DNA of 64,000 nucleotides, taken from NCBI GenBank assembly GCA_021793645.1, contig JAJYSJ010000002.1:144753-208752 (forward strand), given 5' to 3'. The translations under genes were made by a program, and so were the position numbers. Origin of the DNA: Bacillota bacterium. Lineage in GTDB: Bacteria; Bacillota; Sulfobacillia; JAJZYS01; JAJYTV01. This document shows, in pieces, positions 42,557 to 62,855 of this stretch (its first letter is position 1; every line of letters begins with the position of its first letter). Below the pieces are notes generated by a model. The model saw nothing but the letters and a program-made list of their open reading frames with translations. It was not told the origin of the DNA and did no database searches.

Positions 42557-42663
42557 TGTAGCTTGCGGACTCTCGGCGGGTAGTGCGCCGCCGCACATTA
42601 TAGCGCCCCCGAAGGCCAATCGGCGTGCGGGGGTGCTCGATCGGATCGCGAACAATGGCTCCC

Positions 42664-44617: not shown

Positions 44618-46222
44618 CTAGACCTCGTTCGGGCGGTTGAACTGAGCGCGCAGCGCAGACTTGAGAAACTTTCCCGCAGACGTCTTCGGAATCGCCGGGA
44701 GAAACGCGTACTCTTCGGGCAGCCACCACTTCGGAAACTGCGGTGCGAGAAACTCGCGCAGTTCCTCGCCGGTCGCGGACTCCCCCTCGCGCAGCACGAC
44801 GCAGGCGAGCGGACGCTCTTGCCACTTCGGATCCGCCACCGCGACAACCGCCGCCTCTGCCACCGACGGGTGCGCCATCAGTGCGTTCTCCAGCAGGACG
44901 GAACTGATCCACTCGCCGCCGGACTTGATCACGTCCTTGATGCGGTCCTGGATCTGGACGGAGCCCGTGGCGTCGATCGTCACGATGTCGCCCGTGCGGA
45001 ACCAGCCATCGGCGGTAAATCGGTCCCCCTGCTCGTCACTGCGGTAGTAGGAGGAGGCCACCCATGGCCCGCGCAGTTCAAGCTCGCCAGGCGTCATGCC
45101 GTCCCATGGCACGATGCCGGACTCGCCGCGCGCCCGGATCTCCACCAGCGGCATCGAGACACCCTGTCTTGCGCGGCTGCGCATCTGCTCCTCATCCGGT
45201 GCCCCGTCGAGCTCCAGCGGCAGGTTCGAGACCGTCCCGAGCGGCGTCGTTTCCGTCATTCCCCAGGCGTGCACGACGCGAAGGCCATGTCGCTTCTCGA
45301 ATGCCGCGATCATGGAGGGCGGTGCGGCGGCTCCGCCCACAAGCATGGTACGGAGAACAGATAGATCTGGACGCTCTGTCGCCTTGTCGAGGGCCTGGAG
45401 GATGCCGAGCCAGATCGTCGGCACCCCGGCGGTGAACGTGACCTTTTCACCCGCGAGCAGGTCGATCAAGCTTGCGGGATCCAAGTGAGGGCCTGGCAGC
45501 ACGAGTTTCGCTCCCAGCATCACGCATGCGAAGGGAAGACCCCACGCGTTGACGTGGAACATCGGCACGACGGGCATCACGGTGTCCCGTCCGGTCAGGC
45601 CGACGCTCTCGGCGAGCCCCAGCCCCAATGAGTGCAGCACGAGCGCCCGATGGGAGTAGAGAACTCCCTTCGGACGCCCTGTGGTTCCAGACGTGTAGGA
45701 CATCGCGGCTGCGGAGCGCTCCGCGATGTCGGGATAGACGAATGTTTGCGGATCTTCGGCCGCAATCAGTTCCTCATAATCCAGCATGCCTTCGGGCACG
45801 GGCCGGGTAGCCTGCAGCACGATCACCTTTTCGAAGTGCGTGCGTTCCCGAACCTGTTCAAACAGCTGCAAGAGCGCTTCGTCGACGAGCAGGATGCGGT
45901 CTTCGGCATGGTCTGCGATGTAGACGATGTCGTCAACCGGCAGCCTGAGGTTGATCGTGTGCAGAACGGCTTCGACGCTCGGAACGCCGAAGTACGCCTC
46001 GAGGTGCGCGTAGTGGTTCCAGGAGAGTGTCGCAACCCGATCTCCTGGCCGGATCCCCATCCGCCGCAAGGCGAGTGCAAGCTGCTTCGTGCGCCGTACG
46101 AAATCCCGGAAGCGATAGCGGTGCAAGGACCTGTCCGGCAACCGGGAGACGACTTCCCGTGCACCGTAAATCTGCTCCGCGCGGCGCATCAAGGACGGAA
46201 CCGTCAACTGGTAATCCATCAT
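44618..46222 (-). CDS. long-chain-fatty-acid--CoA ligase (AMP-binding enzyme)
   Basis: AMP-binding motif YTSGTTGRPKGV and the C-terminal DRIKDVIKSGGE motif. ATGATG start with a GGAAGGA RBS. Confidence 0.85.
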   Translation of the reverse strand: MMDYQLTVPSLMRRAEQIYGAREVVSRLPDRSLHRYRFRDFVRRTKQLALALRRMGIRPGDRVATLSWNHYAHLEAYFGVPSVEAVLHTINLRLPVDDIVYIADHAEDRILLVDEALLQLFEQVRERTHFEKVIVLQATRPVPEGMLDYEELIAAEDPQTFVYPDIAERSAAAMSYTSGTTGRPKGVLYSHRALVLHSLGLGLAESVGLTGRDTVMPVVPMFHVNAWGLPFACVMLGAKLVLPGPHLDPASLIDLLAGEKVTFTAGVPTIWLGILQALDKATERPDLSVLRTMLVGGAAAPPSMIAAFEKRHGLRVVHAWGMTETTPLGTVSNLPLELDGAPDEEQMRSRARQGVSMPLVEIRARGESGIVPWDGMTPGELELRGPWVASSYYRSDEQGDRFTADGWFRTGDIVTIDATGSVQIQDRIKDVIKSGGEWISSVLLENALMAHPSVAEAAVVAVADPKWQERPLACVVLREGESATGEELREFLAPQFPKWWLPEEYAFLPAIPKTSAGKFLKSALRAQFNRPNEV

Positions 46223-46376
46223 TAGTCCTTCCACATGAACCCTCCTCGGCACCACGATCGAGCGCCCTGCATCTCGCCGGAGGGTTTCGGCCTGGGCGCA
46301 CCAGTCCCCTGTTCCCATCGCCCCTCAGACGGGCCTCAGGTCGGCGATGGTAGCCTTTGCCGGGGGAGGTGACATA

Positions 46377-46615: not shown

Positions 46616-46904
46616 TCCTTTGCACTTCTTCATGCTTTGAAGAGCACGCCAGGGATTCATCGTGCCGTGATGCGACCGATGTGGGTAGGGCAGTTGAGTA
46701 CGCCGAAGAGGGCAGTAAGCGCACCTGCCACAGTCCAGCAGAAGCCGACCAATCGGAAGAGGGGCCGTCTGCGTCGTGCATTCCCCACACAGGGCAAGGT
46801 GAGCCGCCACAGCCATGCGGGATTCCGAAGACAGATCGCGAAGTACTCTCGCGTGTTGGTGAAGGCGCACTCGCAAGATGCCAGCGATCGGACGGAGGGA
46901 TGGC

Positions 46905-47333
46905 ATGGCGGCGTACCGGGACAGGGAAGAGATGGTCGAAATCTTCGCAACCTTGGCTGAACGCGCAGCATCCAGCCAGGCGGCCAAACTGCTGCATAAC
47001 TCACGAATGGTGGTCTCCTTCGTCTACCGCAATCCGGATCTCGTTCTCGTGATGGACGGCCGCACCGCCCAAGAGGGCGAACCGCCCATGCTGATGCGCT
47101 TTGACACAGCGGAACCGAAGCCGGATGTCACGTTCGAGTGCTCCGCCGATGTCGGGCACCAGTTCTGGCTCGGCAAGCTGGACGTACCTCAGGCGCTCGG
47201 CCGCGGCATCGTCAAGGCACGCGGCTCGATTGCCAAGGCACTGAAGCTCCTGCCCATGATGCCGCCGCTCTACGACGCCTACCGTCAGGTGCTCTCGGAG
47301 CGCGGCGGCCTGCAGGGAGGCGATCTGCGATGA
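46905..47333 (+). CDS. SCP2 sterol-carrier domain protein
   Basis: SCP2-like C-terminal motif ([18 protein letters not shown]). Paralog of 56672..57121 (~60% identity by eye). Its stop overlaps the ADH start. Confidence 0.65.
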
Positions 47334-48454
47334 GGGCGGCGGTGATGCCGGAGGACGGCGACCGTCTGGAGATCCGGGACCTCGACCTAGCAGATCCTGG
47401 TCCTGGACAGGCGCTTGTTCGCCTGGTCGCCAGCGGCGTCTGCCACAGCGACCTGCACGTAATTGAGGGCACCCTTCCGGTGCCGCTGCCCGCCGTTCTA
47501 GGCCATGAGGGGGCCGGGATCGTAGAGGCGGTCGGCCCAGGGGTAACCCGCGTGCAGCCGGGAGACCACGTGGTACTCTCTTGGGTCCCGAGCTGCGGCT
47601 CCTGCTTCTACTGCGGGATTGGACGGCCGGACATGTGCGACGATGCCTTCGCAATCCAGATGAGCGGTTCGCTCCCTGGCGGCGGCATGCGGCTGAGCGA
47701 CGGCGAGGAGCAGGTGTACCACTTCCTCGGGACGTCCTGCTTCGCCGAGCGTACGGTCGTCCAGGAGCGCGGCCTTGTGCCGATCCGGCGCGATGTGCCC
47801 CTCGATAGGGCGGCACTCGTCGGCTGCGCGGTCACGACCGGCTACGGTGCCGTGATGCACACGGCCCAGGTGCAGCCCGGATCCCGCGTGGCAGTCATCG
47901 GCGCCGGCGGCGTCGGTCTCAACGTGATCCAGACCGCAGCGCTGGCCGGTGCCCGCCAGATCATCGTGATCGACCGGGTTCCGGAAAAGCTTGCCCTGGC
48001 GCGCCGCTTCGGTGCCACCGACGTGATCGACGCCGCACATCTCGATGACCTTGTAACCCCGGTCCTCGACCTGACGGAGGGCAGGGGCGCCGACTACAGC
48101 TTCGAGGTCGTGGGCCGTCCCGAGACCATCGAGGCGGCCTACGGCATGACGCGCAAGGCTGGTATGACCGTCGTCGTGGGCATCGCGGCGCCGCACGAGG
48201 AATTGTCACTGAACGCCTTTTCGATCCCTGCGCAGTCGCGCATCCTGACGGGCAGCTGGTACGGGCGGTCTGTGCCCGACGTAGACATACCCGCGATCTT
48301 GGACCTGTACATGCAGGGGCGTCTCGATCTCGACGGGCTGATTTCCCATCGATACGCGCTGGAGGAGATCAACGACGCCTTCGACGCGATGCGGCGGGGC
48401 GAACTCGCCCGTGGCGTGATCGACTTTGCCAAGACAAGGGAGGCGGGTGCCTGA
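47330..48454 (+). CDS. zinc-dependent alcohol dehydrogenase (class III / AdhC-like MDR)
   Basis: Catalytic Zn ligands ([14 protein letters not shown]), structural Zn motif ([15 protein letters not shown]) and a Rossmann motif GAGGVG. Confidence 0.9.
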
Positions 48455-49947
48455 TGGCGGAGGAAATCTCCGTGCCCGAGGGTTCGTTGTACATCGACGG
48501 CGAGTGGACTCCGCCGCACTCCGGCCGCCGCTATCCCCTCATCGACCCGGCGACTGCGGAGCCGTTCGCACAGGCGGCCGACGGCGGAGCGGAAGACATC
48601 GACCGCGCGGTGTCCGCCGCTCTGGCAGCCATGCGCGAACGTCGCTGGCTGGGCATCGACCCACTCGAGCGCTCGCGGGTGCTCCATCGCATGGCGGACG
48701 GCATCCGCGCACATGCACAGGAACTCTCAGAGGCAATGGTGCGCGAGAACGGCATGCCTCTCGCGTTTGCCCAATGGCTCGAGATCCCGATGGCCGCCGA
48801 TGTCTTCGACTACTTCTCCGGTCTGGTGCCGCAGGTGCACGGCGAGACCCTGCCCTTCTCCCTGCCGGGTCCCCAAGGCGACTACCTCGCCTTCACTCTG
48901 CGCGAACCGGTCGGGGTGGCAGGACTGATCACGCCGTGGAACTTCCCCTTGCTGATGCCGGCGTGGAAGCTGGCGCCAGCCCTCGCAGCGGGCTGCGCCG
49001 CCGTATTGAAGCCGGCTCCGGAGACGCCGCGCACGGCGCTCCTCTTGGCCGCGATCGCCGCAGAGGCAGGCGTGCCCCCAGGCGTGATCAATGTGGTCAC
49101 CGGAGGGGATGAGGCCGGGATCGCGCTCGTCGCCCACCCCTTCGTCCCGAAGATCGCGATCACCGGCGAGACCGCTACCGGCGCCAAGGTGATGACCTCC
49201 GCAGCGCAGCGCATCAAGCGGGTGACGCTCGAACTTGGCGGAAAGTCTCCAAACATCATCTTTGACGACGTCGCTCTCGACCAGGCCGTCTCCGGCGCCC
49301 TCTTCGGGGTCTACCTCAACTCGGGGCAGGTCTGCCAGGCGGGCAGCCGCATCCTCGTCCAGGAGACGATCGCCGATCAGTTCGTGGAGGCGCTCAGCGC
49401 GCGCGTGGCGGACCTGCACGTCGGACCGGGCTCCGACTTCTCGAGCGACATCGGTCCCGTCGTCAGCGCCCGTCAACTGGAGCGAGTGATGGGCTACATC
49501 GACACTGCGGGCGCAGAGGGCGCCCGTCTCGTCGCGGGCGGACGCCGCCTTCGCGAACTAGGACAGGGCTTCTTCGTCGAGCCGACCGTCTTCACTGACG
49601 TCACGCCCTCGATGCGCATCGCGCAGGAGGAGGTGTTCGGGCCGGTCTCCGCAGTCATCCGATTTCGAGACGAGGCTGAAGCGCTCGAGATCGCGAACGG
49701 AACGTCGTACGGCCTTGCGGCCGGCATCTGGACCAAGGATCTGCGCCGAGCACTGCGAATGGCACGCGGGGTGCAGGCCGGAACAGTCTGGCTGAACACC
49801 TATCAGCTCCTGTCGCCAACCGTCCCCTTCGGCGGCTACAAGGAAAGCGGCCTCGGCCGCGAACTCGGTCCCCATGCCCTGGACGCCTATCTCGAGACAA
49901 AGACCGTGATCGCAGATCTGAACGAGGAGCCGTTCAGCTTTTTCTAA
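48454..49947 (+). CDS. NAD(P)-dependent aldehyde dehydrogenase
   Basis: ALDH catalytic Cys (GQVCQAGSR) and Glu (ELGGKSP), and an NAD-binding G-x-x-x-x-G region. ATG overlaps the ADH stop. Confidence 0.9.
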   Translation: MAEEISVPEGSLYIDGEWTPPHSGRRYPLIDPATAEPFAQAADGGAEDIDRAVSAALAAMRERRWLGIDPLERSRVLHRMADGIRAHAQELSEAMVRENGMPLAFAQWLEIPMAADVFDYFSGLVPQVHGETLPFSLPGPQGDYLAFTLREPVGVAGLITPWNFPLLMPAWKLAPALAAGCAAVLKPAPETPRTALLLAAIAAEAGVPPGVINVVTGGDEAGIALVAHPFVPKIAITGETATGAKVMTSAAQRIKRVTLELGGKSPNIIFDDVALDQAVSGALFGVYLNSGQVCQAGSRILVQETIADQFVEALSARVADLHVGPGSDFSSDIGPVVSARQLERVMGYIDTAGAEGARLVAGGRRLRELGQGFFVEPTVFTDVTPSMRIAQEEVFGPVSAVIRFRDEAEALEIANGTSYGLAAGIWTKDLRRALRMARGVQAGTVWLNTYQLLSPTVPFGGYKESGLGRELGPHALDAYLETKTVIADLNEEPFSFF

Positions 49948-50764: not shown

Positions 50765-52420
50765 TCAGCGCCTGGCCGGCCGCCGGAGCACGTCCTCCAC
50801 AGGGCCCGCGTTGAGGATGTCCTTGGCCGCGACGCCCGCCTTCTGCGCTTGGGCGATGCCGAGCGGCATGTATCCGAGTTCCTCGACCGAGTGCGCGTCC
50901 GTATCGATGAGAAAGCGAAGTCCCTGCGCGCCAGCGTCTCCCAGCCAGCGGTAGTCGAGGTCCAGCCTGCGCGGCGAGGCATTCAGTTCAAGCGCTGTCC
51001 CCGCCTCACGCGCCGCCGCGAAGACGCGCCCCCAGTCTGCTGCGATCGGGGGGCGCAGCCCCAGCTTGCGCGCGCCAGGATGGCCGATCGCCGTCACCAG
51101 CGGATGCCGGATCGCGCGCACGAGGCGCATAGTCGCCTCCTCCACGCCCTGGTCGAACTGTCCGTGCACCGACGCGATCACAACGTCGAGTTCAGAGAGC
51201 AGGTCGTCGGGTAGATCGAGGCTGCCGTCCGAATGGATGTCCACCTCGCACCCCTGCAGGAGGCGAAAGCCCTCCGGCAGACTGCGCTGCACATCCCGGA
51301 TCTCCTGCCGCTGTGCCCGGTAGCGCTCCGGCGTGAGTCCGTTCGCCACCTTGAGCCCCTGTGAATGGTCCGTCACCGCGAGGTAGCTGTAGCCCCGCGC
51401 AACCGCAGCGGCGGCCATCGTCGCGATGCTCTCCGCGCCGTCGGACCAGGTCGAGTGCGTGTGCAGGTCGCCCTGCACCGTCCGGGGCGCCGCAGCGCGG
51501 CGCGCCGGGTCGAGCCCTCGCAGCGTCGGGGGCACAGCCTCCATCCCGGCGCCGCGGAAGACCTCCTCCTCCGTCGCGCACGGGACGAGCGTGCCGCCCT
51601 CAAATATCCCCTGCGGCGTCATCCGCAGTCCGCGCCGTTCGAGCGCGCGCTGCAGCTCCTCGAGGAAGGCCGCGGGACCTGTCGCCGCCAGCAGCGCTGC
51701 GCCGAGCACCGATTCCTCGACGAAGCGTAGACACTTTGGCCCCAGCGTGAAGCCGCTTGGCAGCGCGAAGGGCTGCATCTCCAGCCAGGCCCTGCGATTG
51801 TCCGCGCTCCCGGGCGCGAACCACTGCGGGTCCTTGACGGTCGGGTCGAGGCGCCTGAGCGCGCCCGCCGGCTGGACTCCGCGCAGCGAGCGCATAAGCG
51901 CCGCGCTCGCGGCCATAAGCTCCGGGAGCGGCACGCCGAGGCGACGCTCAGAAAAGGCGCGCAGCAGGTGCGTGCGCTGCGAGGGGGAGATGCCTGGGAG
52001 GGGCGTACCGGCGCGGAGCTTCGCCTCGAGCTCCCCAACCCTGCCGATGCCTTCCGCCCACAGCTTGCGGGCCGTCGACGGCCCGACGCCAGGCAGCCGC
52101 AGTAGGGCGGACAGTTCTGGCGGCTGGTCCGCCCGCAGGCGCACCAGGGACGCGGGCAGCTCGCCCTCGAGCATGCGGCGGATCTTGCCGCCGATCTTCA
52201 CTCCGATGCCCGGCGCGTCCTCCAGTGCTGTGGGCCGCGAAAGATCCACAGAGCCGTCGGCGATCCGCCGCGCCGCCTCGCTGTATGCCCGCGACTTCCA
52301 CTGGCCTTCTTGCGCGAACACAACGCGATCCGCGAGTTCCTGCAGCAGTCCTGCGATCTCCTGCGCGCTGCGCACTGCCGTCCCCCCCGAAGAAGCGTCG
52401 CCCGCAGGCTCTGCGCGCAT
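50765..52420 (-). CDS. polX: family X DNA polymerase with C-terminal PHP phosphoesterase domain (PolX)
   Basis: Pol-beta-like HhH motifs (LPGVGPSTARKL) and a PHP motif (DLHTHSTWSDG..VTDHS). Confidence 0.85.
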   Translation of the reverse strand: MRAEPAGDASSGGTAVRSAQEIAGLLQELADRVVFAQEGQWKSRAYSEAARRIADGSVDLSRPTALEDAPGIGVKIGGKIRRMLEGELPASLVRLRADQPPELSALLRLPGVGPSTARKLWAEGIGRVGELEAKLRAGTPLPGISPSQRTHLLRAFSERRLGVPLPELMAASAALMRSLRGVQPAGALRRLDPTVKDPQWFAPGSADNRRAWLEMQPFALPSGFTLGPKCLRFVEESVLGAALLAATGPAAFLEELQRALERRGLRMTPQGIFEGGTLVPCATEEEVFRGAGMEAVPPTLRGLDPARRAAAPRTVQGDLHTHSTWSDGAESIATMAAAAVARGYSYLAVTDHSQGLKVANGLTPERYRAQRQEIRDVQRSLPEGFRLLQGCEVDIHSDGSLDLPDDLLSELDVVIASVHGQFDQGVEEATMRLVRAIRHPLVTAIGHPGARKLGLRPPIAADWGRVFAAAREAGTALELNASPRRLDLDYRWLGDAGAQGLRFLIDTDAHSVEELGYMPLGIAQAQKAGVAAKDILNAGPVEDVLRRPARR

Positions 52421-52431: not shown

Positions 52432-54009
52432 TCAGCCTGCTCCGTTCAGCCGTGCGTAGATGCGGCGGTTCTGCCGGTAGATGTCCTGGTAGGCGGCAAA
52501 GGCGCGATCGTAGACGGCGCGCGTCTCCGCCCGCGGCTCAAAGGTCTTCGCAACCCCGATTCGCTGCGCGGCTTCCTCGAAGCTCGAGAGCCCCAGCGCG
52601 ACCGCGGCGATCGTCGCGGCGCCCCTGACATTGGCCTGCAGCGGCTCGTCCACCTGTTCGATCGTGCGTCCGAGGACATCCGCCTGAATCTGGCACCAGA
52701 CGTCTGAGCGGGCGCCGCCGCCGATGCAGCGGATCGGATCGAGCCTGCGCCCGGTGAACCCATCCATGGCCTGCAAAAGCCAGCGGCTGTTCAGCGCGAC
52801 ACCTTCGAGGACGGCACGCACCAAGTGCGGGCGGCTGGTCTCTAGGGAGACGTTGTAGAAGCCGCCGCGCACGAGATGATCCTCGATCGGGGTGCGCTCG
52901 CCATAGAGCCACGGTGTGAAGAGAACGCCTCCCGCGCCTGGCGGCGCCAGTGCCGCAGCTTCGTCGAACAGCCGGTACGCGTCTTTGGGCGGTGGACCAG
53001 TCCCCAGGACGTCCTCGTGATAGAAGAGGTTGTCCCGCAGGAAGGTGAGGCAGGCCCCTGCCGTCTCCTGCTCGTTGGCCACGAAGTAGCGGCCTGGGAT
53101 GGCCGAGGGCAAGGTCGCCATGTTGTGCGCGATGTCGGTCTTCTTGAGCGGGACGTGGCAGGTCAGCCAGGACGACGTGCCAAGGTACAGATGTGCCTGG
53201 AAATCTTGGGTCGCGCCGGATCCCACCGCGGCCGACTGGATATCGGGCGAGCCGCCGGCGACCGGTACGCCGGCCGGCAGGGAAAGGTCGCGGGCCGCCT
53301 CCTCGCACAACTCTCCGACGATGTCCGTGGAACGGAGGATCTCCGGCAGCTTGCTGCGTTCCACCCCCACCGCCCGCAGCAGTCCTGCGTCGTAGCGCAC
53401 CCGCGCCGCGTCGCGGTTGTCTGTGACCCAATGCAGAGCGATCGAATCGACCGTAGCTGCAAGCCGTCCCGTGAGGCGCGCGTTGAGGTAGTCCTTCGGC
53501 TCGAGAAAACAGGCGGCCGCAGCATAGAGCTCCGGACGCTCCGCCCGTAGGTAGAGAATGTGGGCGATCGAGTCCTTGCCCGAACCTGCGGGGATGCCGC
53601 CTGTCTTGCGCAGCCAGGTGAAGAGCTTGCCCGCCCCGTAGCCGGCCACCGAAGGCCAGCCCCGCGTCGCCGCCTGCACGTGCCGCGCCCCGCGGGCATC
53701 CATCCAGATGATCGCCGGGGAAAGCGCGCGCCCGCGGTTGTCGACCGGAACCGTGCCGGACCACTGCGCCGTGCAGCCGATCCCCTTCACGTCGCCTGGC
53801 GCGGCGGCGCCGGTTTGCCACAGGCGCGCGGCGGCGGTAGCAATCGCCCGCCACCAAGCGTCAGGATCCTGCTCCGCGCCGCCGCCGGGCAGAAGGGCGA
53901 GCGGATACTCCTCTGTCTCGAGCGCAAGCACCGCGCCATCCGTTCCGACGAGCGCAACCTTGCAGGCCGATGTCCCAAGGTCGATCGCGAAGATGCATGG
54001 CTTGCCCAT
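52432..54009 (-). CDS. FGGY-family carbohydrate kinase (xylulokinase/glycerol kinase-like)
   Basis: N-terminal FAIDLGTSACK and an FGGY C-terminal domain; 525 aa. Confidence 0.85.
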   Translation of the reverse strand: MGKPCIFAIDLGTSACKVALVGTDGAVLALETEEYPLALLPGGGAEQDPDAWWRAIATAAARLWQTGAAAPGDVKGIGCTAQWSGTVPVDNRGRALSPAIIWMDARGARHVQAATRGWPSVAGYGAGKLFTWLRKTGGIPAGSGKDSIAHILYLRAERPELYAAAACFLEPKDYLNARLTGRLAATVDSIALHWVTDNRDAARVRYDAGLLRAVGVERSKLPEILRSTDIVGELCEEAARDLSLPAGVPVAGGSPDIQSAAVGSGATQDFQAHLYLGTSSWLTCHVPLKKTDIAHNMATLPSAIPGRYFVANEQETAGACLTFLRDNLFYHEDVLGTGPPPKDAYRLFDEAAALAPPGAGGVLFTPWLYGERTPIEDHLVRGGFYNVSLETSRPHLVRAVLEGVALNSRWLLQAMDGFTGRRLDPIRCIGGGARSDVWCQIQADVLGRTIEQVDEPLQANVRGAATIAAVALGLSSFEEAAQRIGVAKTFEPRAETRAVYDRAFAAYQDIYRQNRRIYARLNGAG

Positions 54010-54018
54010 ATCCCTCTC

Positions 54019-55428
54019 CTAGACCTCGTAGAGCACGTCGATGTAGGCCTCAAGGAGCCCGTGCACGAGTTCCCCAGGCGCCATCGCGGCCATGCCGTAG
54101 AGAGGCGCCATCCCCGTGCGCACCTCGGGACTGCGCCGCACCTCGTCCGTCGAAGCCTGCAGGTCGGAAAGAAAGCGCTCCACGACCCCCTCCTCCGCGT
54201 GTCGGCGGGTGAGGGCGATGTGGAAGGCAGGCGGGTGATGCAGGCCGTTCAGACTCCAGCCCCGCTGCGCCATCTGCTCCATCACCTGGTAGATGTCGAG
54301 CGTATCGGATGCGATCGCGACCACGAAGAGCGGGTCTCCCAGCACCTTGAGGTCCGGGATCTCGCGCACGCCCTGCTTGAGGCGGTCCGCTGCGGCCAGG
54401 ATCCCTTTGGCGGCCGCCATGTAGCCGTCCTCTCCCGTTGCGACGAGCGCCGCCCACGCAGCGGCGATCAAGGCGCCCGGCCGGCTCCCGAGGAGGGTCG
54501 AGGAGACGTAGAGCCCGCCTGGCCAGTCTGCGGCAGTGTAGCACTGGTGATGGAAGAGGTCGGCGCTCCGGTAGAGCACCACCGACGTTCCCTTCGCGGC
54601 AAAGCCGTACTTATGCGTATCCACGGATATCGACGTGACTCCTGGTACGCGGAAGTCGAAGGGCGGGACGGGGTAGCCGAGACGCTCCGCCCAGGGCAGG
54701 ACAAAGCCCCCAAGGCATGCGTCGACGTGGCAACCGATGTCGTGTTCTCCCGCGAGCGCGGCGATCTCCTCGATCGGGTCGATCACCCCATGGGGAAAGG
54801 ACGGCGCAGACGCGACGAGCACCACGGTATTCTCGTTCACGGCGGCGCGCATCGCCTCCACGTCCGCGCGCAGGTCCTCCGCGACCGGAACGCGCACGAG
54901 CCGCAGTCCGAAGTAGTGGGCGGCCTTCTCAAACGCCGCATGCGCCGTGACCGGCACGACGATCTCCGGCTGTGCGATGCCCTTCTCTTCACGCCCCCAG
55001 TCGCGGTAGGCCAGCATGGCGAGCAGGATGCTTTCCGTGCCGCCCGTGGAGACGGCGCCCACGACCCGGTCCCCGCGACGGTGCGTTCGGACCGCATCAC
55101 CGGAGAGCATTCTGGCGGTCATCGCCACGACCTCTGCCTCGAACTTCGCGGCGCTAGGCCAGATGTCGGGATGCAGAGGATTGCTCTGGGACTGGGTCTT
55201 ATAGGCGGCGCTCAGGAATTCCGTGTGCTCCGCGCCGCCATGGTAGACGGCGCCGGACGCGTAGCCAGTCTGCCAGCGGCCGGCCTCCAGCTGGCGCAGC
55301 TGCTCTAGGAGCGAAAGCACCTCCTGGTGGCTGCGCCCCCGTTCGGGCAGACGGTCCACCGTCTCCATGCGGCCCCTGTAGGGCTTGAGCTGCTTGGCAA
55401 GGAAACTGAGTATGTCGGGTGTACTCAC
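54019..55428 (-). CDS. PLP-dependent group II decarboxylase-fold enzyme, sphingosine-1-phosphate-lyase-like
   Basis: PLP-lysine motif SVDTHKYG and SPL/GAD-family similarity over ~460 aa. GTG start with an AGGAGG RBS; the 535-aa track ORF has a P/S/R-rich extension judged non-coding. Confidence 0.8.
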
Positions 55429-55450
55429 GGAAGTGATGCCTCCTAGGGGC

Positions 55451-56626
55451 CTACTGAGGTTGGGATGCGGATAGGGCCGCGGGAACGGCCGACGGGGAAG
55501 GCAGCTGCCAGGCCACCACGAGCCCGACGAGCGCAACGAAGGCGATGAAGGCGAGAGCGAGGTGCGGCAGGGCGACGAGCGGCGTGACTGCCACGACCAG
55601 CACGAAGCCGCCGAGGTTTCCTGCAAGCATCAGGAAGCCGACCGCGCGGCCCTGCTCCCCGGCGCCGACATGCACTTCCGCCCAGTCGAGGACGACGGGC
55701 AGGCTGGCGAGCAGCAGGATTCCTTCGAGTCCCAGCCAGACGGCCAACCACACTGCCGACTGCCGCCAGTCGATGGCGAGGGCAGTCAGCAGAGTCCAGC
55801 CGACCGCAGCGAAGAGCGTCCAGCGGCGCCAGCCGCGTGCGGCGACGATCGGCGGCAGGACGCCCGCGCCGACGATGCCGGTGAGGGTCATCAGGGCGAG
55901 CAGGTCGCCCGTCAGGTTGCCGGCGCCAAACGGAGCCAGGATCGGCTGCAGCCACGTGGCGAGCACGTTGTAGACGCCCATGCCGACGAAGAGCAGCGCA
56001 CCGAGCTTCCAGAGCAGCGGCTCCTTCGGCAGCCACGAGCCCGAAGGACTCGCAGGCGGATCCTCAAAGGCTGGCGGACTTTGCATAGACAGCACGAGGA
56101 GAATCGCGCCCGCAACGGCGATCGCCGCTTCTACCGTGAGAACGAGCGAAAGCCCGCCGGACGTGTACAAGGCCGGGCCGCCTGCCATCGCGATCATGAT
56201 ACCGATGAACAGCGACACGCTTCCCAGCCCGATTGCGACCGCACGCTCCTCCTGTGGGAAGTAGCGCGCAGCCAGCTTGGTGATGCCGTTCAAGACGAGG
56301 GGCTGACCGACCGAGATGACCACCTGGGCGAAGAGTTGCCAGGTGAAAGAGTCCGGCATGAACAGGCGGATCACTGCGCCGGCGCCCGTGAGGATCGCGC
56401 CTGTCCGCAGGGCTGTGTTGAAGTCCCTATCCAGCCAGCGTCCTGTCGGGAGTGCCAGTACGACGTAGATCAGCGGGAAGATTGCTGCGAGGTTCCCGAC
56501 GGCGGCGACGGACGTGTGCATCGCGTGCGCCGCTTCCGTGGTGATCGGCGCGAAGGTGATCCAGAGCATCTGCGTGCTGGCGGCAACGAGGCCGTAGGCG
56601 ACAAGGATCGGCCAGCGCCTTTGCAT
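55451..56626 (-). CDS. MFS transporter
   Basis: 12-TM hydropathy. First gene of a three-gene minus-strand operon with the SPL-like enzyme and the FGGY kinase. Confidence 0.8.
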
Positions 56627-56671: not shown

Positions 56672-57121
56672 CTACGGCGTCCGCTCGCCCGACTGCTGCG
56701 CGCGCAGGCTGCGATACTCCTCGTAGAGCGGCGGCATCAGCGGCAGCAGCCTCAGCGCCTTGGCGATCGATCCCCGTGCAGTGATCTCCCCGCGTGCGAG
56801 CGCCTGGGTCACGTCGAGCTCGCCACTCCAGAAGCGGTGGCCGATCTCCGCGGAGCAGGTGAACGTGACGTCCGGCCGCGGCCCTCCGTCAAAGTGCATG
56901 ATCATGGCCGGTCCACCCTCCTCGGGCGTCCGGCCATCCATCACCAGCGTCAATTCGGGATCGTGATAGGCGAATGCCACAACCATGCCTGCATCGTAGA
57001 GCACTTTGGCCGCCTCGCTGGCGCTCGCCCTGCGGCCGAGTTCACCGAAGATCTCCAGCATCTCCGCCTTGTCGCGAAACGCCGCCAACACTGTCCCCTC
57101 CATGCATCCCCCAACGATCAT
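56672..57121 (-). CDS. SCP2 sterol-carrier domain protein (paralog of 46905..47333)
   Basis: Alignable along the whole length with the other SCP2 gene (..MLEIFGELGRRASASEAAKVL..GSIAKALRLLPLMPPLYEEY). Confidence 0.6.
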   Translation of the reverse strand: MIVGGCMEGTVLAAFRDKAEMLEIFGELGRRASASEAAKVLYDAGMVVAFAYHDPELTLVMDGRTPEEGGPAMIMHFDGGPRPDVTFTCSAEIGHRFWSGELDVTQALARGEITARGSIAKALRLLPLMPPLYEEYRSLRAQQSGERTP

Positions 57122-57196: not shown

Positions 57197-57535
57197 CTAC
57201 CACGAAAGGTTGAAGACGACGAACCCAAATGCAAACCAGAGGTCGCGGGCCGTGATGCGGCGGTTGAGTCCGAACGAATCGAGCGGGATCCGCCGGCCCC
57301 GTACGAGCCACCCGCCGAGCAGGAAAACGACTTCGCTCACAAGGGGGACAACGGCCGACATCGCCCAGGAGTGCGTCAAGGATGACACGCCGCCGGCAGG
57401 GTAGGCGATGATCCAGCCGAAGGTAACCATCATCGGGAAAATCCCACCGAACGCGACAGCGATAAACAGTCCACCAAGCCAGGAAGCGAAGGTAAGCCGA
57501 TCCGCCGAAGAAACGGGCGCTGTCTCGAGATCCAT
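57197..57535 (-). CDS. hypothetical membrane protein (3 TM)
   Basis: Hydrophobic ORF with no recognised family. Start chosen at MDLETAPV. Confidence 0.35.
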   Translation of the reverse strand: MDLETAPVSSADRLTFASWLGGLFIAVAFGGIFPMMVTFGWIIAYPAGGVSSLTHSWAMSAVVPLVSEVVFLLGGWLVRGRRIPLDSFGLNRRITARDLWFAFGFVVFNLSW

Positions 57536-57741
57536 GGGAACCTCCTTTGCCTGCGGCACGCACGGTGCGGCTACGGATTACTTCGTGACCGACCGCGTCG
57601 CTCCGTCCCACGTTTGACGAACGGTGTCCCAGTTCTTCCCATGCCGTGGAGGCCGAGAGCTGTCGAGCGGGATGGTGTGCGATCCCGTGTTGTCAAGAAG
57701 TTCGGGATGCCCAGACGCCGCAGAGGCGCTATCATGCTGGC

Positions 57742-58956
57742 ATGCAGTCCTGGTTGTCCCGCTACCCCAAACCGCTCCTTGTGCTCGTTGCGAGCACCGT
57801 CCTCATGGTCTCGGGCTTCTCCCTTCTCTGGCCGCTTGTGACGATCTACGTGCACACGCGGCTTGGACTCTCCATGACCGACGCCGGTCTTGTCCTTCTC
57901 CTGCAATCGGCGGCAAATCTCGCAGGCAACTTCATCGGAGGCAATCTCTTCGACGTTTGGGGCGGGCGGAGGACGATCGTGACGGGTGCCCTCCTGGCCG
58001 CAATCGCCACCACCGCGATGGCGATCTTCCAGGGCATCCTGCCTTACGCTCTTCTGACAGTCGCGGTGGGCGTTGGAACGGGGCTCGTCTACCCTTCCAT
58101 CTATTCCTATGCCGCAACCGTCTGGCCCGAAGGGCGACGGGCGGCGTTCAATGCCGTTTACGTCGCCTCCAACGTGGGCGTCGCCGTAGGCTCCTTCGCT
58201 GGCGGCTTCCTCGCCCAGGTCAGCTTCTCTCTCTCGTTCGCGACAACCGGCGCAATCTTTCTTATCTACCTGATCTGCGTTCTGCTCGCCTTTCGCGGAC
58301 CCGCTTGGGAAAAGGCGGCCCGTCCGACGGCACCGGCCACTGCGGGCAGCACCTTGCGGACGCCGCTCTTCGCCCTCGCACCCCTCCTGCTTGCGGGAGG
58401 CATGTTCCTCGACTGGGCTGCCTACGTCCAGTGGCAGGTGACCGTCCCGACGCACATGCAGGCACTGGGGTTCCCTCTCTCCAGCTACAGCCTGCTCTGG
58501 ACGCTGAACGGCGCCGTGATCCTGCTCGGGCAGCCGCTCGTGACATGGTTGACCGGCCGCGTGCCTCGCGTGAAGGCGCAGATCTTGATCGGGAACGCCC
58601 TGTTCGTCGCGGCCTTCCTCGTCCTCGTGCGAACAGCGATCTATCCAGGGTTTCTCATCGCCATGGCCCTCGCCACCTTCGGCGAGATGCTGGTCTGGCC
58701 AGGCGTGCCGGCAGCCGCCGACCAGCTCGCTCCAGAGGGTAGACGCGGCCTCTACCAAGGCCTGATCAGCGGCGCTTCCTCCGCAGGCCGAGGGCTGGGT
58801 CCACTGCTGGGCGGCCTGCTATACGACCACTTCCCATCGCCGATGCTGTTCGCGGCGATGACCGGCATCTTTATCTTGGGGTTCTTCGTGCTGGCGCTGC
58901 ACGATCGCACAGCCATCCGCCAGGCTTCCGCGCCGAGCGTCCCGCTTGATCACTAG
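57742..58956 (+). CDS. MFS transporter
   Basis: 12-TM MFS pattern. Start at MQSWLSRYPKP. Confidence 0.8.
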   Translation: MQSWLSRYPKPLLVLVASTVLMVSGFSLLWPLVTIYVHTRLGLSMTDAGLVLLLQSAANLAGNFIGGNLFDVWGGRRTIVTGALLAAIATTAMAIFQGILPYALLTVAVGVGTGLVYPSIYSYAATVWPEGRRAAFNAVYVASNVGVAVGSFAGGFLAQVSFSLSFATTGAIFLIYLICVLLAFRGPAWEKAARPTAPATAGSTLRTPLFALAPLLLAGGMFLDWAAYVQWQVTVPTHMQALGFPLSSYSLLWTLNGAVILLGQPLVTWLTGRVPRVKAQILIGNALFVAAFLVLVRTAIYPGFLIAMALATFGEMLVWPGVPAAADQLAPEGRRGLYQGLISGASSAGRGLGPLLGGLLYDHFPSPMLFAAMTGIFILGFFVLALHDRTAIRQASAPSVPLDH

Positions 58957-59162: not shown

Positions 59163-61229
59163 TCATCGCGTCCGGTTCTCCTTGGCGCTTCCTTGGCTGC
59201 GCTCAGGGGACGTAGGACCAGTGTTCCCCGCCGTCCTGGCTGTGTAGAGTCCACCTCGCGTCAGGATCAGCGCCAGCGATCTGCCTGCCACCGCTACCGC
59301 ATTCGGCGGCCCCAGCTGAGAAAGGTTCAAGGCAGACCAGCTGCGCCCGCCATCGCGCGTCACAAGATACTGCGACGTATAGGCATAGCGCTGCACGATG
59401 CCAAAGCCGCTCGGAGCGATGGCCATCTGCAGCCCGGGGAACTGGGTGTGCGTCATTCCCCGCACCTGCAGCAGCGCATTCCAGTGCCTCCCGCCGTCCG
59501 CCGTCGCGTAGAGAGTGGCCTGACCGGCCTGCCCGACGTACGCGAAGCCCTTCCTGGGTGTCTCGAACGCAATGGACCAGACGTCTTGGTTAGGCAGCTT
59601 CCCGTATGTGTACCACGTCTTGCCCCCGTCAGCGCTGCGCAGGATCTCTCCACCCGTCGCAGCCAGGCTGGCCGCAACGCCGATCCCTCCCGAAAAGATG
59701 TGCGCGTACTCCAGTGCGTGCCGCAGCACGGCGCCTACCGCCTGCCAGTGCTGCCCTCCGTCGGTCGTCTGGTAGCCGCGAATGGACTCCTCCGGCATGA
59801 AGGTGCTCGCGATGGCGTAGCCCCGCTGCGCGCCCGCGAAGGAAACGCTCCGGGGAACCTGTCCCGGCAGGTCGCCGACGATGCCCCAGGACTTTCCGCT
59901 GTCGGTGCTTTGCAGGAGCGCCGACGCATCGGACGGCAGGCCGAAGCCACAGAGCGTACCGCCTGGATCCGCTCCCAGTCCGAGAGCCGGCGCCGGCGCC
60001 GGCCAGACCTGCTGCACAGTCCCGTCCGACAACAGGCGCACGAGCGCACTGCTCCCCCCGTTGTTGGACTCAGGAAGCGCCGCGATGGCGTAGGCCATGC
60101 CCGGCAGCACGAAGAGCGCCCCGGTGTCGAATGCCATGGCAGCGAACTGCCGGAAGCTGCGGCCGCCGTCTGTTGTGACGAGAAATCCGCCAGCACCGCC
60201 GCCCGCGCCTTGGGATAGCGAGATCCACCCGTCTTCTGGGCTCGTGAACTGCGGTGCGCTGGGCCACCCCACCTGGATGTTCGGCCCCCACCGGTAGGAC
60301 TTTTGCAAGGGCTGCCAGGTCCGCCCGCCATCGGCCGTCCCCTCGAGTGCTGAAAGGCAGCCGCCCATGGTGCATCCCTCGAGGTTCGGCAGCTCTGCGA
60401 AGCCGACCTCGGGCGATACGAAGTCCACTGCGAACGTGCCGACGTTGCCAGTCCCGGTGCTGCCGACAGACTGCAGTACCTGCCAGGTTGCCCCGCCATC
60501 CGCCGTGCCGAGGATCGCTCCGCTGCAGCTGCCGTAGGATCCATCAGCAGGCGTGCAGCGCCAGGCGGCGAGGTAGCCGTGTCTTGCGTCGACGAAGTCG
60601 ACGCCCATCGGATAGTAGCCCTCCGTCCCGACCGTCTCCCAGGTGCTGCCGCCGTCCTCCGTACGCACGAGCGCCGTCGCCCGCAGGGGGCCGGCGTATC
60701 CGCGCGCAGGGATAATCCCGTAGCCGAGGCTCTGGCTGAGCATGCGGGGACCTTGCAAGAACTCCTCGCCGCGCTCCAGGGTGCGCCAGGTCTCACCGCC
60801 GTCGTCCGTGCCAAGCAGGCTCTGTACGCCGCCCGCAGTGGTGGCCGTGATCAAACCGTGCAGGGAGTCGATGAACTGCACAGACGTCGGCAGCAGTTGG
60901 CCAAGAGCGGTCCAGGAGAGCGTCTGCCCACCGTCGCTCGTCGTGGCAACGCCCCCGACGCAGTTGCTTTGGTTCCAGCCGCAGCGCGTGCCCACCGCGA
61001 AGCCCCGCTGAGCCGTCAGGAAGTCGAGGCCGGTCAGGGACCACGGCGCCTCGCCCACCACGGGCTGAATCATTCCGGTGATGCGGGCGGTCGGCATAGA
61101 GATTGGGGCGGGCTTTCGCATAGCCGCCTTGGGAATTGTAGTCCCGCAAGCAGCCGTAAGCGCAGTGACTACCGCCAGCAGCACGCCTGCCGCCGTACGC
61201 CCTCGTCGCGGTGCGTTCGGGCCCGCCAT
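59163..61229 (-). CDS. BNR/Asp-box repeat beta-propeller lipoprotein (Ycf48/sialidase-like repeats)
   Basis: At least 11 S/T-x-D-G-G-x-T/S-W repeats (TSDGGQTLSW, TDDGGETWRT, TEDGGSTWET, ...). Lipobox LTAAC after an N-terminal signal-like segment. Confidence 0.75.
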   Translation of the reverse strand: MAGPNAPRRGRTAAGVLLAVVTALTAACGTTIPKAAMRKPAPISMPTARITGMIQPVVGEAPWSLTGLDFLTAQRGFAVGTRCGWNQSNCVGGVATTSDGGQTLSWTALGQLLPTSVQFIDSLHGLITATTAGGVQSLLGTDDGGETWRTLERGEEFLQGPRMLSQSLGYGIIPARGYAGPLRATALVRTEDGGSTWETVGTEGYYPMGVDFVDARHGYLAAWRCTPADGSYGSCSGAILGTADGGATWQVLQSVGSTGTGNVGTFAVDFVSPEVGFAELPNLEGCTMGGCLSALEGTADGGRTWQPLQKSYRWGPNIQVGWPSAPQFTSPEDGWISLSQGAGGGAGGFLVTTDGGRSFRQFAAMAFDTGALFVLPGMAYAIAALPESNNGGSSALVRLLSDGTVQQVWPAPAPALGLGADPGGTLCGFGLPSDASALLQSTDSGKSWGIVGDLPGQVPRSVSFAGAQRGYAIASTFMPEESIRGYQTTDGGQHWQAVGAVLRHALEYAHIFSGGIGVAASLAATGGEILRSADGGKTWYTYGKLPNQDVWSIAFETPRKGFAYVGQAGQATLYATADGGRHWNALLQVRGMTHTQFPGLQMAIAPSGFGIVQRYAYTSQYLVTRDGGRSWSALNLSQLGPPNAVAVAGRSLALILTRGGLYTARTAGNTGPTSPERSQGSAKENRTR

Positions 61230-61384
61230 CTTGCCGCCTCCGATCGTCCTTCTACCGGCCAGCTTGAACCTCATCGAACACCAGGAGACCCCGCATTGAA
61301 CGCTTCCCGCCCGTGCCTGATATCCTGGCCCTCAACGACGACATTTTACGGCGCCGCTGATAACGCCGTAGGCAGAAGAGTGCA

Positions 61385-61443: not shown

Positions 61444-62700
61444 TCAGGCGCCTTCCGCCTCGGCCTGTTCGACAGGCGTCGGTACAGGCATGCGCACGGC
61501 GAGCAGGAGAGAGCAGAGCATCAGCCCTCCTCCCATCAGGAAGACCGTCGAGAGCGGAAGAGTACTCGCGAGGAATCCTCCGAGCATGGCTCCGAGCGGC
61601 GCCGCGACCTGGACGGTGGTCATCAATGCCCCTACGGCGCGCCCCATCATGTGCTGCGGGATCTCGCGCTGGAACATCGTTTGTGCAACTGGGTTCACCA
61701 CCCCGATGCCTACTCCCAGGAAGAAGAGAACAACGAGGTCCGGCACGAAGTACGGCAGTTGGGAGAATGCCGTAAAGGCGATGGCGGTCAGCATGACCGA
61801 TCCGAGAATCAGGTGCTGTCCCTTGAAGCGCTGCATCAGGGCGCCCGCGAGGATGCTGCCGGCGATCACGCCGATGGTAACGGCGGCGCCGAGGATGCCG
61901 TATTCCAGCGCACCGAGGTGCAGCACCTGGCGCACCCACACGACGTCCAGCACGTTAAGGGGCATGAACGCGAAGTTCATGATCGCGCCGAGCAGCACGA
62001 GCCGGCGGAAAAAGGGGCTGCCGTAGACAAAGCGCAGCCCTGCGCCGAGCTCGCGCAGAAAGCTGGGTGGCTGCCCTTCGACGGACGACCTGGCCGCAGG
62101 CATCGTAGCCTCGCGCGTCAGGCGCAGCAGCCCTACCGAGACGAACGAGACGACAAACGTCGCTGCATCGATCCCCAGCAGCAAAGCAGGGCCGAAGACG
62201 CCCATCAGGAAGCCGCCGAGGCTCATGCCGACAAGACCAGCACCTGCGCTGGCACCCTGGTTCATGCCGCTTGCGGCGCCAAGCTCCTCCATGCCCACGA
62301 CGTTCGGCAGAAGGGACATCTCGGCGGGCCCGAAGAGGTTGCCGACGAGACCGATCAGCAGCGCAAACGCGAAGATCATCGGCAGGCCGAGGTGTCCGAG
62401 CCCGGCCGCGAGTGCGAGCCCGCCCGCAAGGAGGGCACGCAGCACGTCAGACCAGATCATCGTGCGCCTGCGGTCCCAGCGATCCACGAGAACCCCCGTC
62501 AGCATGCTCGCAAGGGCTGTCAGACTGATCACGGTTCCGAGGTATCCGAGATCCATGCGACTTCCGGTCAGACTGAAGGTATACCAGTAGATTGCCAAGG
62601 GATAAAAGGCGTTTCCGAACTGGGAGACAACCTGACCAGACAGCATGATGACGTAGTTGCGGTTATGCAGTACTCCCGACCGCTTTCCCTGTTCTTCCAA
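61444..62700 (-). CDS. MFS transporter (DHA-type efflux-like)
   Basis: 12-TM pattern. TTG start 7 nt after GGAGGAG; the upstream 44 codons of the track ORF include a palindromic region and are rejected. Confidence 0.7.
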   Translation of the reverse strand: MEEQGKRSGVLHNRNYVIMLSGQVVSQFGNAFYPLAIYWYTFSLTGSRMDLGYLGTVISLTALASMLTGVLVDRWDRRRTMIWSDVLRALLAGGLALAAGLGHLGLPMIFAFALLIGLVGNLFGPAEMSLLPNVVGMEELGAASGMNQGASAGAGLVGMSLGGFLMGVFGPALLLGIDAATFVVSFVSVGLLRLTREATMPAARSSVEGQPPSFLRELGAGLRFVYGSPFFRRLVLLGAIMNFAFMPLNVLDVVWVRQVLHLGALEYGILGAAVTIGVIAGSILAGALMQRFKGQHLILGSVMLTAIAFTAFSQLPYFVPDLVVLFFLGVGIGVVNPVAQTMFQREIPQHMMGRAVGALMTTVQVAAPLGAMLGGFLASTLPLSTVFLMGGGLMLCSLLLAVRMPVPTPVEQAEAEGA

Positions 62701-62761
62701 TGTCACACTCCTCCGCCAGCTCTGGCCATACCTAGAGCGTAGCGCCATGGTGCGGCCAGCG

Positions 62762-62805
62762 TACTGTCCTTTGGTACAGGATGGCGCCTGTACCAAAGGG
62801 CAGTT
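62762..62805. promoter_or_regulatory. AT-rich 17-bp inverted repeat (CTGTCCTTTGGTACAGG-n7-CCTGTACCAAAGGGCAG); candidate operator or terminator between the dmpA-like and MFS genes
   Basis: Read directly. 16/17 positions are palindromic; the composition is unusually AT-rich for this genome. Confidence 0.4.
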
Positions 62806-62855
62806 TCCGTGTCCGGTTGCAGGCGAAGCCAAGACTGCGAGCGAGATCGCCTGCC

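Follow-up and report, generated by a model that had tools for sequence, protein, structure and literature searches.

The window considered here, that is, the whole stretch of 64,000 nucleotides (nt) of a Bacillota contig that was analysed, carries at positions 52432-56626 three minus-strand genes for a major facilitator superfamily (MFS) transporter, a pyridoxal phosphate (PLP)-dependent enzyme and an FGGY-family kinase. The PLP enzyme is a member of the sphingosine-1-phosphate (S1P) lyase (SPL) family and an orthologue of the lyase of Symbiobacterium thermophilum (StSPL), with its activity predicted from the sequence. Lyases of this kind are already known, and the window protein is a new member. 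What is new is that, in at least six phyla, StSPL orthologues nearly always have a kinase of one particular FGGY subfamily at their side. The outcome is a well-supported conserved genomic module with a proposed substrate.

Reading of the sequence together with the list of open reading frames (ORFs) confirmed the three genes of the preliminary description, which Pfam assigns to MFS_1, Pyridoxal_deC and FGGY_N plus FGGY_C, respectively. The ATG of the MFS gene has an upstream ribosome-binding site (RBS), GGAAAGGGGTGGAG. The automatic call of the lyase ORF begins at a TTG at 55626. Because this start would overlap the MFS gene by 175 nt, and because an AGGAGG stands ten bases ahead of a GTG at 55428, the GTG was taken as the lyase start. 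The protein of 469 amino acids (aa) read from it is identical in length and sequence to database protein P0001, from a metagenome-assembled genome (MAG) of Thermaerobacter sp. The spacing of 10-23 nt given earlier for the three genes is essentially right, the gaps being read as 22 nt between the MFS stop and the lyase GTG and 9 nt between the lyase stop and the kinase ATG. A signal scan detected no minus-strand terminator-like site inside the three genes or between the kinase and the polX-type gene that follows it. A promoter scan found no sigma-70 consensus around the operon, and an Rfam scan of these surroundings gave no informative signal. With a common strand, short gaps, no internal terminator and an order that is kept in relatives, the MFS, lyase and kinase genes are predicted to form a three-gene operon read as a single transcription unit.

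Among S1P lyases, StSPL serves as the structural prototype. It is a proposed therapeutic enzyme that cleaves S1P in vitro and in blood, and its natural function in bacteria is stated to be unknown (PMC3148216). In a phmmer search of all Protein Data Bank (PDB) sequences, the top matches of the window lyase are four StSPL entries, among them 3MAD (E 4.6e-202, 675 bits, end-to-end), and the two proteins are about 65% identical. The other solved S1P lyases also score highly: 419 bits for that of Burkholderia (5K1R), 417 for the human enzyme (4Q6R), 372 for the yeast enzyme (3MC6), 366 for a trypanosomatid lyase and 242 for that of Legionella (4W8I). The first decarboxylases in the same search are MfnA with 95 bits and glutamate decarboxylase (GAD) with 84 bits.

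The active site gives the same picture. Fourteen functional residues of StSPL were taken from Table 3 of PMC6148460, covering the PLP phosphate cup, the PLP sandwich, the substrate-phosphate pocket, the Schiff-base lysine, the PLP aspartate and the entry tyrosine. All 14 are kept in the window lyase (A60, Y62, N83, H86, G130, T131, H163, D236, C238, H272, K273, K279, S315 and Y444), and 77-80 of 80 lyase orthologues share each of them. K273, D236, H163 and C238, which correspond to StSPL K311, D274, H201 and C276, occur in every one of the 80. The residues of the substrate-phosphate pocket and the entry tyrosine of StSPL (A103, Y105, N126, H129, K317 and Y482) are matched by A60, Y62, N83, H86, K279 and Y444, each again in 77-80 of the 80. 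The lysine motif SVDTHKYG pointed out in the preliminary description is present, its Schiff-base lysine being residue 273. The PDB scores and the 14 residues therefore place the enzyme in the S1P lyase family (EC 4.1.2.27, PLP fold type I). The active-site comparison proposed in that description thus finds the Tyr, Cys and Lys of SPLs and the phosphate-site residues in place, and its view of the enzyme as SPL-like is borne out, since the protein is a close orthologue of the characterised StSPL in which the catalytic and phosphate-site residues are all kept. The window lyase lacks the N-terminal flexible segment of StSPL of about 45 residues and starts correspondingly later. As a point of bookkeeping, the entry P0033, named in UniRef 'Putative sphingosine-1-phosphate lyase, Symbiobacterium thermophilum', is the engineered 5EUD construct and not the native sequence; it differs from the wild type by four point substitutions, bears a C-terminal His6 tag and is numbered native + 1.

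The third gene encodes a kinase with both FGGY domains (PF00370 FGGY_N, E 4.8e-37; PF02782 FGGY_C, E 3.3e-31), in which a D10-L-G-T-S motif and the catalytic D256 align with D6..S10 and D233 of XylB. Its orthologues are annotated in public records as 'xylulokinase' or 'FGGY-family carbohydrate kinase'. The best NCBIfam match is indeed the XylB model TIGR01312, at 275.6 bits under a cut-off of 380.25, while NF011601 reaches 167.7 bits against a cut-off of 912. The best solved relative is E. coli XylB (2ITM, E 3e-42, about 30% identity). Judged by these scores, the kinase is not an XylB equivalog. In an alignment of 64 lyase-linked orthologues, 105 positions are conserved at the level of at least 97%. 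The subfamily-invariant W83 in the acceptor loop replaces M77 of XylB. Three further features are absent from XylB: a 22-residue insert at 129-150 with an invariant GKD at 144-146, a subfamily-invariant TDNR insert at 196-199, and Q314 and G318 within the near-invariant stretch NEQExAG. Besides W83, there are extra invariant tryptophans at W132, W281 and W410. These features point to a distinct FGGY subfamily that co-occurs with the lyase. In a few Chloroflexota the gene beside the lyase encodes a divergent FGGY protein (33-38% identity), in which GKD is kept and the other subfamily features are not. A diacylglycerol kinase (DAGK)-type catalytic domain with motifs C1-C5 was not found in the kinase, and the Pfam scan gives FGGY domains only; for this reason the enzyme may work like long-chain-base kinases and is not described as a member of their family.

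The link between the two enzymes was assessed in two ways. For the lyase-selected set, an alignment of lyase orthologues was used to scan one genome per species, and the 80 best loci, with 56-84% lyase identity, were retained; their neighbouring genes were detected by tblastn with the window proteins. The kinase-selected sets comprise four long contigs and 80 metagenome loci from a scan with the kinase alignment. The samples of 80 loci are the closest relatives obtained from pattern scans rather than a random sample of genomes, and taxon names are those of the database records. In the lyase-selected set, 73 of the 80 genome loci have an FGGY kinase orthologue as the immediate same-strand neighbour of the lyase, with 49-82% identity in most. 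In four of the seven remaining loci the contig breaks off on the side concerned, so that the pairing amounts to 73 of 76 assessable loci. From the kinase side, the lyase is adjacent in all four long contigs, with 4-nt start/stop overlaps in three of them; this set includes Leptospiraceae, Paraliomyxa and a contig that looks actinobacterial by its neighbouring genes (L086). Among the metagenome loci the lyase is present in 74 of 80, directly adjacent in 72 and across one small inserted ORF in two, and about half of the six loci without it are truncated. Both kinase-selected sets together thus show the lyase in 78 of 84 loci.

The pair occurs in Bacillota, Actinomycetota, Chloroflexota, Myxococcota (Archangium, Myxococcus), Desulfobacterota and Spirochaetota. 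The lyase precedes the kinase in Bacillota, Actinomycetota and the single Spirochaetota locus, and the kinase precedes the lyase in Chloroflexota, Myxococcota and Desulfobacterota. With 73/80 and 74/80 loci in two independent selections and a spread over at least six phyla, the adjacency is far beyond chance. Unsupervised de novo clustering of neighbouring ORFs revealed no other neighbour family conserved across lineages, and consequently the lyase-kinase pair is regarded as the functional core. The neighbourhood comparison suggested in the preliminary description therefore yields kinase-lyase adjacency as its result, and the idea put forward there, that the kinase is functionally tied to the PLP enzyme, gains strong backing from the cross-phylum pairing, the two gene orders and the frequent 4-nt overlaps. 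A literature search found no work linking S1P lyase to an FGGY kinase or xylulokinase or mentioning the neighbours of STH1274, and nothing relevant on a bacterial sphingosine kinase or a Myxococcus S1P lyase, most subscription-journal papers being outside its reach. Two loci show other arrangements: in L126 (2800-5569) an MFS gene lies directly upstream of the kinase with no lyase within 4 kb, and in L060 (Chloroflexota, 3038-4357) a second lyase paralogue, 47% identical, lies about 5.6 kb upstream of the paired lyase gene.

The transporter is a regular third member in one of the two arrangements. It belongs to the MFS by Pfam (PF07690, E 1e-26), scores 188 bits with TIGR00903 (cut-off 391.85), and its best solved relative is FLVCR2, a choline/ethanolamine transporter, at a marginal E of 9e-5. 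Immediately upstream of the lyase, 13 genome loci (6 Bacillota, 6 Actinomycetota and 1 Spirochaetota) carry an MFS orthologue, which is also found in about 30 of the 37 metagenome loci in which the lyase comes first; where the kinase comes first, it never stands directly upstream of the pair. The three-gene combination described earlier consequently holds for the lyase-first arrangement of Bacillota and Actinomycetota and does not extend to the kinase-first loci. The MFS protein is a candidate importer of the amino-alcohol substrate. The lyases differ between the arrangements as well: those of kinase-first loci have about 500-510 aa with an N-terminal extension of about 45 residues (e.g., L045 9251-10771, L102 2897-4402 and L120 6379-7950), and those of MFS-lyase-kinase loci, the window's included, have about 460-470 aa and no such extension. 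The extension and the MFS gene thus appear to be mutually exclusive. In an actinobacterial contig (L081, 2726-6333) the triad, with 3-nt gaps, divergently adjoins an operon for a three-subunit molybdenum enzyme of the aldehyde oxidoreductase/xanthine dehydrogenase family, which in this single case is a further candidate for handling the aldehyde. Perhaps four MFS genes are located in the final 22 kb of the window (42664-44559, 55451-56626, 57646-58956 and 61444-62832); the second and third are confirmed by Pfam, and the first and fourth were assigned on visual inspection of their translations. The gene at 57646..58956 (+) is divergent from the upstream end of the operon.

The features of the locus are collected in Table 1. 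The three genes listed in the preliminary description are accompanied by three co-oriented ones that it leaves out, namely PolX downstream and two small genes upstream of the MFS gene. The farther of the two small genes, for which neither Pfam nor NCBIfam gives a match, is possibly the first of the transcription unit, as its orientation and spacing suggest. The nearer one encodes a protein for which an AlphaFold2 model built on a 16-sequence alignment reached a pLDDT of 86.2; a model from a 2-sequence alignment (pLDDT 42.5) was discarded. The best 47 Foldseek matches of the retained model in the PDB are SCP2 proteins or carriers of an SCP2 domain, all with probability 1.00, and stand-alone SCP2 proteins give target-normalised TM values of 0.53-0.73. 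There is also a profile match to the SCP2 protein 4UEI (E 7e-4), and Pfam SCP2 is sub-threshold (E 0.0036, 18.1 vs 21.3 bits). On this modelling, the 143-aa product has the SCP2 alpha/beta fold of sterol and lipid carriers. This gene is kept upstream of the MFS gene only in the closest relative, L001 (79% identity), and its product is tentatively considered an accessory of the module.

Table 1. Genes of the operon and its surroundings in the window
Feature	Coordinates	Strand	Basis or remark
MFS transporter, 391 aa, ATG start	56626..55451	-	first gene of the triad
PLP enzyme / S1P lyase orthologue, 469 aa, GTG start	55428..54019	-	PLP-dependent retro-aldolase by homology
FGGY-family kinase, 525 aa, ATG start	54009..52432	-	FGGY_N + FGGY_C
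Small predicted membrane protein, 112 aa, ATG at 57535, RBS AAGGAGG	57535..57197	-	ORF and RBS from sequence
SCP2-fold protein, 143 aa, 45 nt upstream of MFS gene	57103..56672	-	AlphaFold2 and Foldseek
PolX-type DNA polymerase/PHP phosphoesterase, 11 nt past kinase stop	52420..50765	-	Pfam HHH_8, DNA_pol_B_thumb, PHP
Second SCP2-like gene	46878..47333	+	57% identical to the SCP2-like gene upstream of the MFS gene
Zn-alcohol dehydrogenase	~47330..48454	+	ADH_N/ADH_zinc_N
Aldehyde dehydrogenase	48454..49947	+	Aldedh, E 1.6e-172
AMP-binding acyl-CoA-ligase-type gene	46318..44618	-	near the operon

A unit of SCP2-like, alcohol dehydrogenase (ADH) and aldehyde dehydrogenase (ALDH) genes, together with the acyl-CoA-ligase-type gene, lies within 6 kb of the operon. 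Its SCP2-like gene and the one upstream of the MFS gene form a local paralogue pair. The unit is found 2-4 kb from the triad in L001, L002, L003 and L010 despite rearrangement, all four being close relatives, and its enzymes are tentative candidates for handling the aldehyde product. An ALDH gene beside the pair was kept as weak support only, since its overall frequency is near the chance level for a large gene family. In Anaerolineales-type Chloroflexota only, a Zn-ADH gene lies upstream of the kinase in eight loci (L026 7119-8177 and seven related ones), and in six (L070 11565-13295 and five related ones) the lyase is followed by a gene for an amidase-signature protein (PF01425, E 1e-105); the two sets overlap partly. 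As both are confined to related Chloroflexota loci, they are not counted as evidence for the core function. The amidase could deacylate an N-acyl amino alcohol of ceramide type ahead of the kinase step, within this lineage-restricted association.

Other neighbours were set aside. An apparent enrichment of glycerophosphodiester phosphodiesterase (GDPD) genes was confined to L007, L083, L085 and L088, and tblastn across 88 loci gave no further cases, so it was put down to chance. PolX scores 275 bits with NF006375 (cut-off 426); its start has no obvious RBS, and an alternative in-frame GTG with a G-run ahead of it lies 45 nt further on. Among the 80 genome loci PolX follows the kinase only in L001. 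For this reason PolX was ruled out as part of the module and regarded as an incidental passenger, probably co-transcribed by read-through with no functional link.

Several features elsewhere in the window are unrelated to the module: a c-di-AMP riboswitch at 14943-15073 (-, 81 bits) and a TPP riboswitch at 22049-22155 (-, 75.6 bits), both passing the Rfam gathering scores, and a tRNA at 24058-24130 (+). The translation of an ORF at 41555-42583 (+) resembles by eye an IS21-family transposase, which is possibly truncated. The gene at 59163-61274 (-) encodes a 703-aa protein with a signal-peptide- or lipoprotein-like N-terminus and many 'DGG.(T/S)W' repeats, which by eye suggest a beta-propeller of BNR/Ycf48 type.

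Because the lyase-kinase pair is the conserved core, and because the lyase needs a C1-phosphorylated 2-amino-3-hydroxy compound, the kinase would make the phosphate ester of a free amino-diol. That the kinase makes the substrate of the lyase, whatever this substrate is, appears likely. That the two form a catabolic or detoxifying module acting on a sphingoid-type 2-amino-1,3-diol, which in this operon is extended to three genes by the transporter, stands at about an even chance. In the first step of such a pathway, the MFS protein would import the free amino alcohol, whose hydrophobic tail may in this organism be held by the SCP2-fold carrier. In the second step, to which the gene linkage points, the FGGY kinase would phosphorylate the primary C1 hydroxyl at the expense of ATP and so fill the role that non-homologous DAG-kinase-type sphingosine kinases play in eukaryotes. 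The SPLs with which pathogens attack host S1P can do without a kinase, while a free-living organism that meets unphosphorylated bases needs one. The third step has been shown for StSPL, and the conservation of the active site suggests the same here: the lyase would form an external aldimine with the C2 amine, and retro-aldol cleavage of the C2-C3 bond would release phosphoethanolamine and an aldehyde; from a long-chain base, the latter would be a long-chain fatty aldehyde. Finally, the aldehyde might be oxidised or reduced by general dehydrogenases, such as those of the nearby SCP2-ADH-ALDH unit.

Among possible substrates, we consider a long- or medium-chain base the most likely, for example sphinganine, sphingosine or phytosphingosine, derived from environmental or endogenous sphingolipids, a choice to which we attach middling confidence. 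For StSPL, the hydrophobic tunnel that leads to the active site is described as long or narrow (PMC6148460, PMC10243590). The engineered sequence of 5EUD and 5EUE departs from wild-type StSPL (3MAD) at four positions, which correspond to F211, L306, V308 and L459 of the window lyase and are hydrophobic in all 80 orthologues. Both engineered entries appear for StSPL under the reference cited for co-crystallisation with an SPL inhibitor (PMC6148460), and we infer that these four positions belong to the lining of the inhibitor site, where the tunnel opens. The published tunnel, the hydrophobic residues at its presumed entrance and the presence of an SCP2-fold gene in the same string of genes favour a hydrophobic substrate, as do the nearby SCP2-ADH-ALDH unit and acyl-CoA-ligase-type gene, all these gene neighbours being conserved among close relatives only. 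A more far-reaching proposal, held somewhat more tentatively, is that the FGGY enzyme represents an unrecognised, non-homologous class of sphingoid-base kinase and that, together with the StSPL-type lyase and, in Gram-positives, the MFS importer, it forms a widespread bacterial route of degradation or detoxification for sphingoid bases of plant, fungal, animal and other bacterial origin.

A number of observations weigh against a sphingoid-base module. To our knowledge, no FGGY kinase acts on a lipid, and most of the host phyla are not known to us to make sphingolipids. The in-vitro activity of StSPL on S1P is no proof of an S1P-like natural substrate. The neighbour clustering revealed no ceramidase, sphingomyelinase, Spt or other sphingolipid-synthesis gene as a conserved neighbour. 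The SCP2 and ADH/ALDH neighbours are conserved among close relatives only; an ALDH gene stands directly beside the pair in L043, L104, L131, L133 and L141, and its occurrence elsewhere is sporadic and barely above chance. The sole solved relative of the transporter, FLVCR2, carries small amino alcohols. Lastly, the kinase is truly absent beside the lyase in three loci with adequate flanks, all of them from Chloroflexota.

In an alternative reading, the order of kinase and lyase is retained and the substrate is a small water-soluble 2-amino-1,3-diol, such as serinol, a 2-amino-2-deoxy-alditol or another amino-polyol, which would enter through the MFS protein, be phosphorylated by the FGGY kinase as polyols are by other members of the family, and be cleaved to a short hydroxy-aldehyde and phosphoethanolamine. 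The FGGY kinases characterised so far, as far as we know, all act on small hydrophilic polyols or sugars, and the best models of the window kinase are xylulokinase, gluconokinase and glycerol kinase. A dedicated MFS protein whose nearest solved relative transports choline and ethanolamine would fit, as would the amino-acid-permease-family gene ahead of the triad in L086. Within the kinase, the invariant polar or charged residues K145, D146, D197, N198 and R199 could bind an amino-polyol head group. However, soluble 2-amino-1,3-diols are rare in nature compared with sphingoid bases, and the neighbour clustering shows no recurrent sugar-catabolic genes or sugar regulators near the pair. Access to the active site in the lyase family is through a narrow hydrophobic tunnel (PMC6148460, PMC10243590), the presumed entrance positions being hydrophobic in all orthologues, and StSPL handles C18 S1P (PMC3148216). 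The SCP2-fold neighbour, too, suggests a lipid. An amino-polyol or amino-sugar alcohol, as offered in the preliminary description, is thus the less likely kind of substrate in view of the tunnel, its presumed entrance positions and the SCP2-fold gene upstream, and we consider a soluble amino-diol unlikely, although far from negligible.

It is much less probable that the two genes are neighbours for historical or regulatory reasons and serve separate pathways, the kinase being an ordinary pentulose or polyol kinase and the lyase acting on compounds that are already phosphorylated. The annotation of the kinase as 'xylulokinase' agrees with such a separation, as does the setting of the pair in unrelated housekeeping contexts, for example among trp/aro genes in L083. 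Nevertheless, the two genes adjoin on the same strand in about 95% of the assessable loci, in six phyla and two orders and with start/stop overlaps, and since this adjacency outlasts extensive rearrangement, shared ancestry of gene order alone hardly explains it. The kinase also falls under the XylB equivalog cut-off and bears subfamily-specific inserts, and no xylose isomerase or other pentose gene was found near the pair by the neighbour clustering.

The option of decarboxylation in the preliminary description, with the PLP enzyme as a group II amino-acid decarboxylase of the MfnA or glutamate decarboxylase type, has in its favour the Pfam match to Pyridoxal_deC, the MfnA tyrosine decarboxylase as best NCBIfam model and the lack of an SPL model among the NCBIfam matches, but it is effectively refuted and was rejected, since all decarboxylase models are sub-cut-off (MfnA 228.7 bits against 299.4, GAD 128 against 380), solved SPLs score 242-675 bits against at most 95 for decarboxylases, and the SPL-specific phosphate residues (StSPL Y105, N126, H129 and K317) and Y482 are all present. 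The enzyme thus combines an SPL identity with a conserved neighbourhood, and not a known decarboxylase clade with unrelated contexts.

The pairing of kinase and lyase gives a testable answer to the question of the natural role of StSPL-type lyases in bacteria. If the kinase acts on sphingoid bases, the natural function of StSPL would be supplied, and the kinase would be a non-orthologous replacement of sphingosine kinase. The FGGY family would then extend from sugars to a lipid, with the first lipid-acting FGGY enzyme known to us. The module would also be a candidate for a major route by which bacteria of soil, sediment and hot springs turn over the large stock of sphingolipids in the environment. 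Should a soluble amino-polyol be the substrate instead, the module would hint at a class of metabolites not yet recognised. In either case, thousands of database entries called 'xylulokinase' or 'decarboxylase family protein' probably carry the wrong name.

Among known systems, StSPL (3MAD/3MAU/3MAF; EC 4.1.2.27) is the closest to the window lyase. The identity of about 65% extends over the whole catalytic core, the PLP, substrate-phosphate and entry residues are identical, and both proteins are soluble, with no transmembrane helix. The likeness also includes the gene neighbourhood: in a MAG of S. thermophilum (L018), the closest relative of StSPL (64% identical to the window lyase) is followed by an FGGY orthologue (61% identical to the window kinase). 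In contrast to StSPL, the window lyase has no proline-rich, basic 'Nt-FLEX' segment, and its gene is preceded by an MFS gene, which is not so in Symbiobacterium loci. Cleavage of S1P or dihydro-S1P to fatty aldehyde and phosphoethanolamine is reported for StSPL (PMC3148216) and predicted for the window lyase. The lyases of the pathogens Burkholderia pseudomallei (S1PL2021/2025, 5K1R) and Legionella pneumophila (LpSpl, 4W8I) belong to the same family and, at 419 and 242 bits, are much more distant than StSPL; they are described as attacking host S1P in virulence (PMC6148460).

The eukaryotic exit pathway, in which Lcb4/5 or SPHK1/2 is followed by Dpl1p or SGPL1, would share its chemistry with the proposed module, namely phosphorylation at C1 and then cleavage between C2 and C3, and its lyase is homologous (417 bits for the human and 372 bits for the yeast enzyme). 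The kinases differ. Sphingosine kinases are DAG-kinase-type enzymes (PMC6148460, PMC10243590), whereas the window kinase is an FGGY protein with an actin-like ATPase fold and is unrelated to them. The window enzymes are, moreover, soluble and encoded in an operon. With XylB (2ITM), GlpK, GntK and LsrK, the window kinase shares the full-length FGGY architecture, the catalytic aspartate and the nucleotide-binding motifs. It differs from XylB, with which it has about 30% identity, in W83 in place of M77, in the GKD and TDNR inserts and in four extra invariant tryptophans, and its gene partner is a lyase where that of XylB is xylose isomerase.

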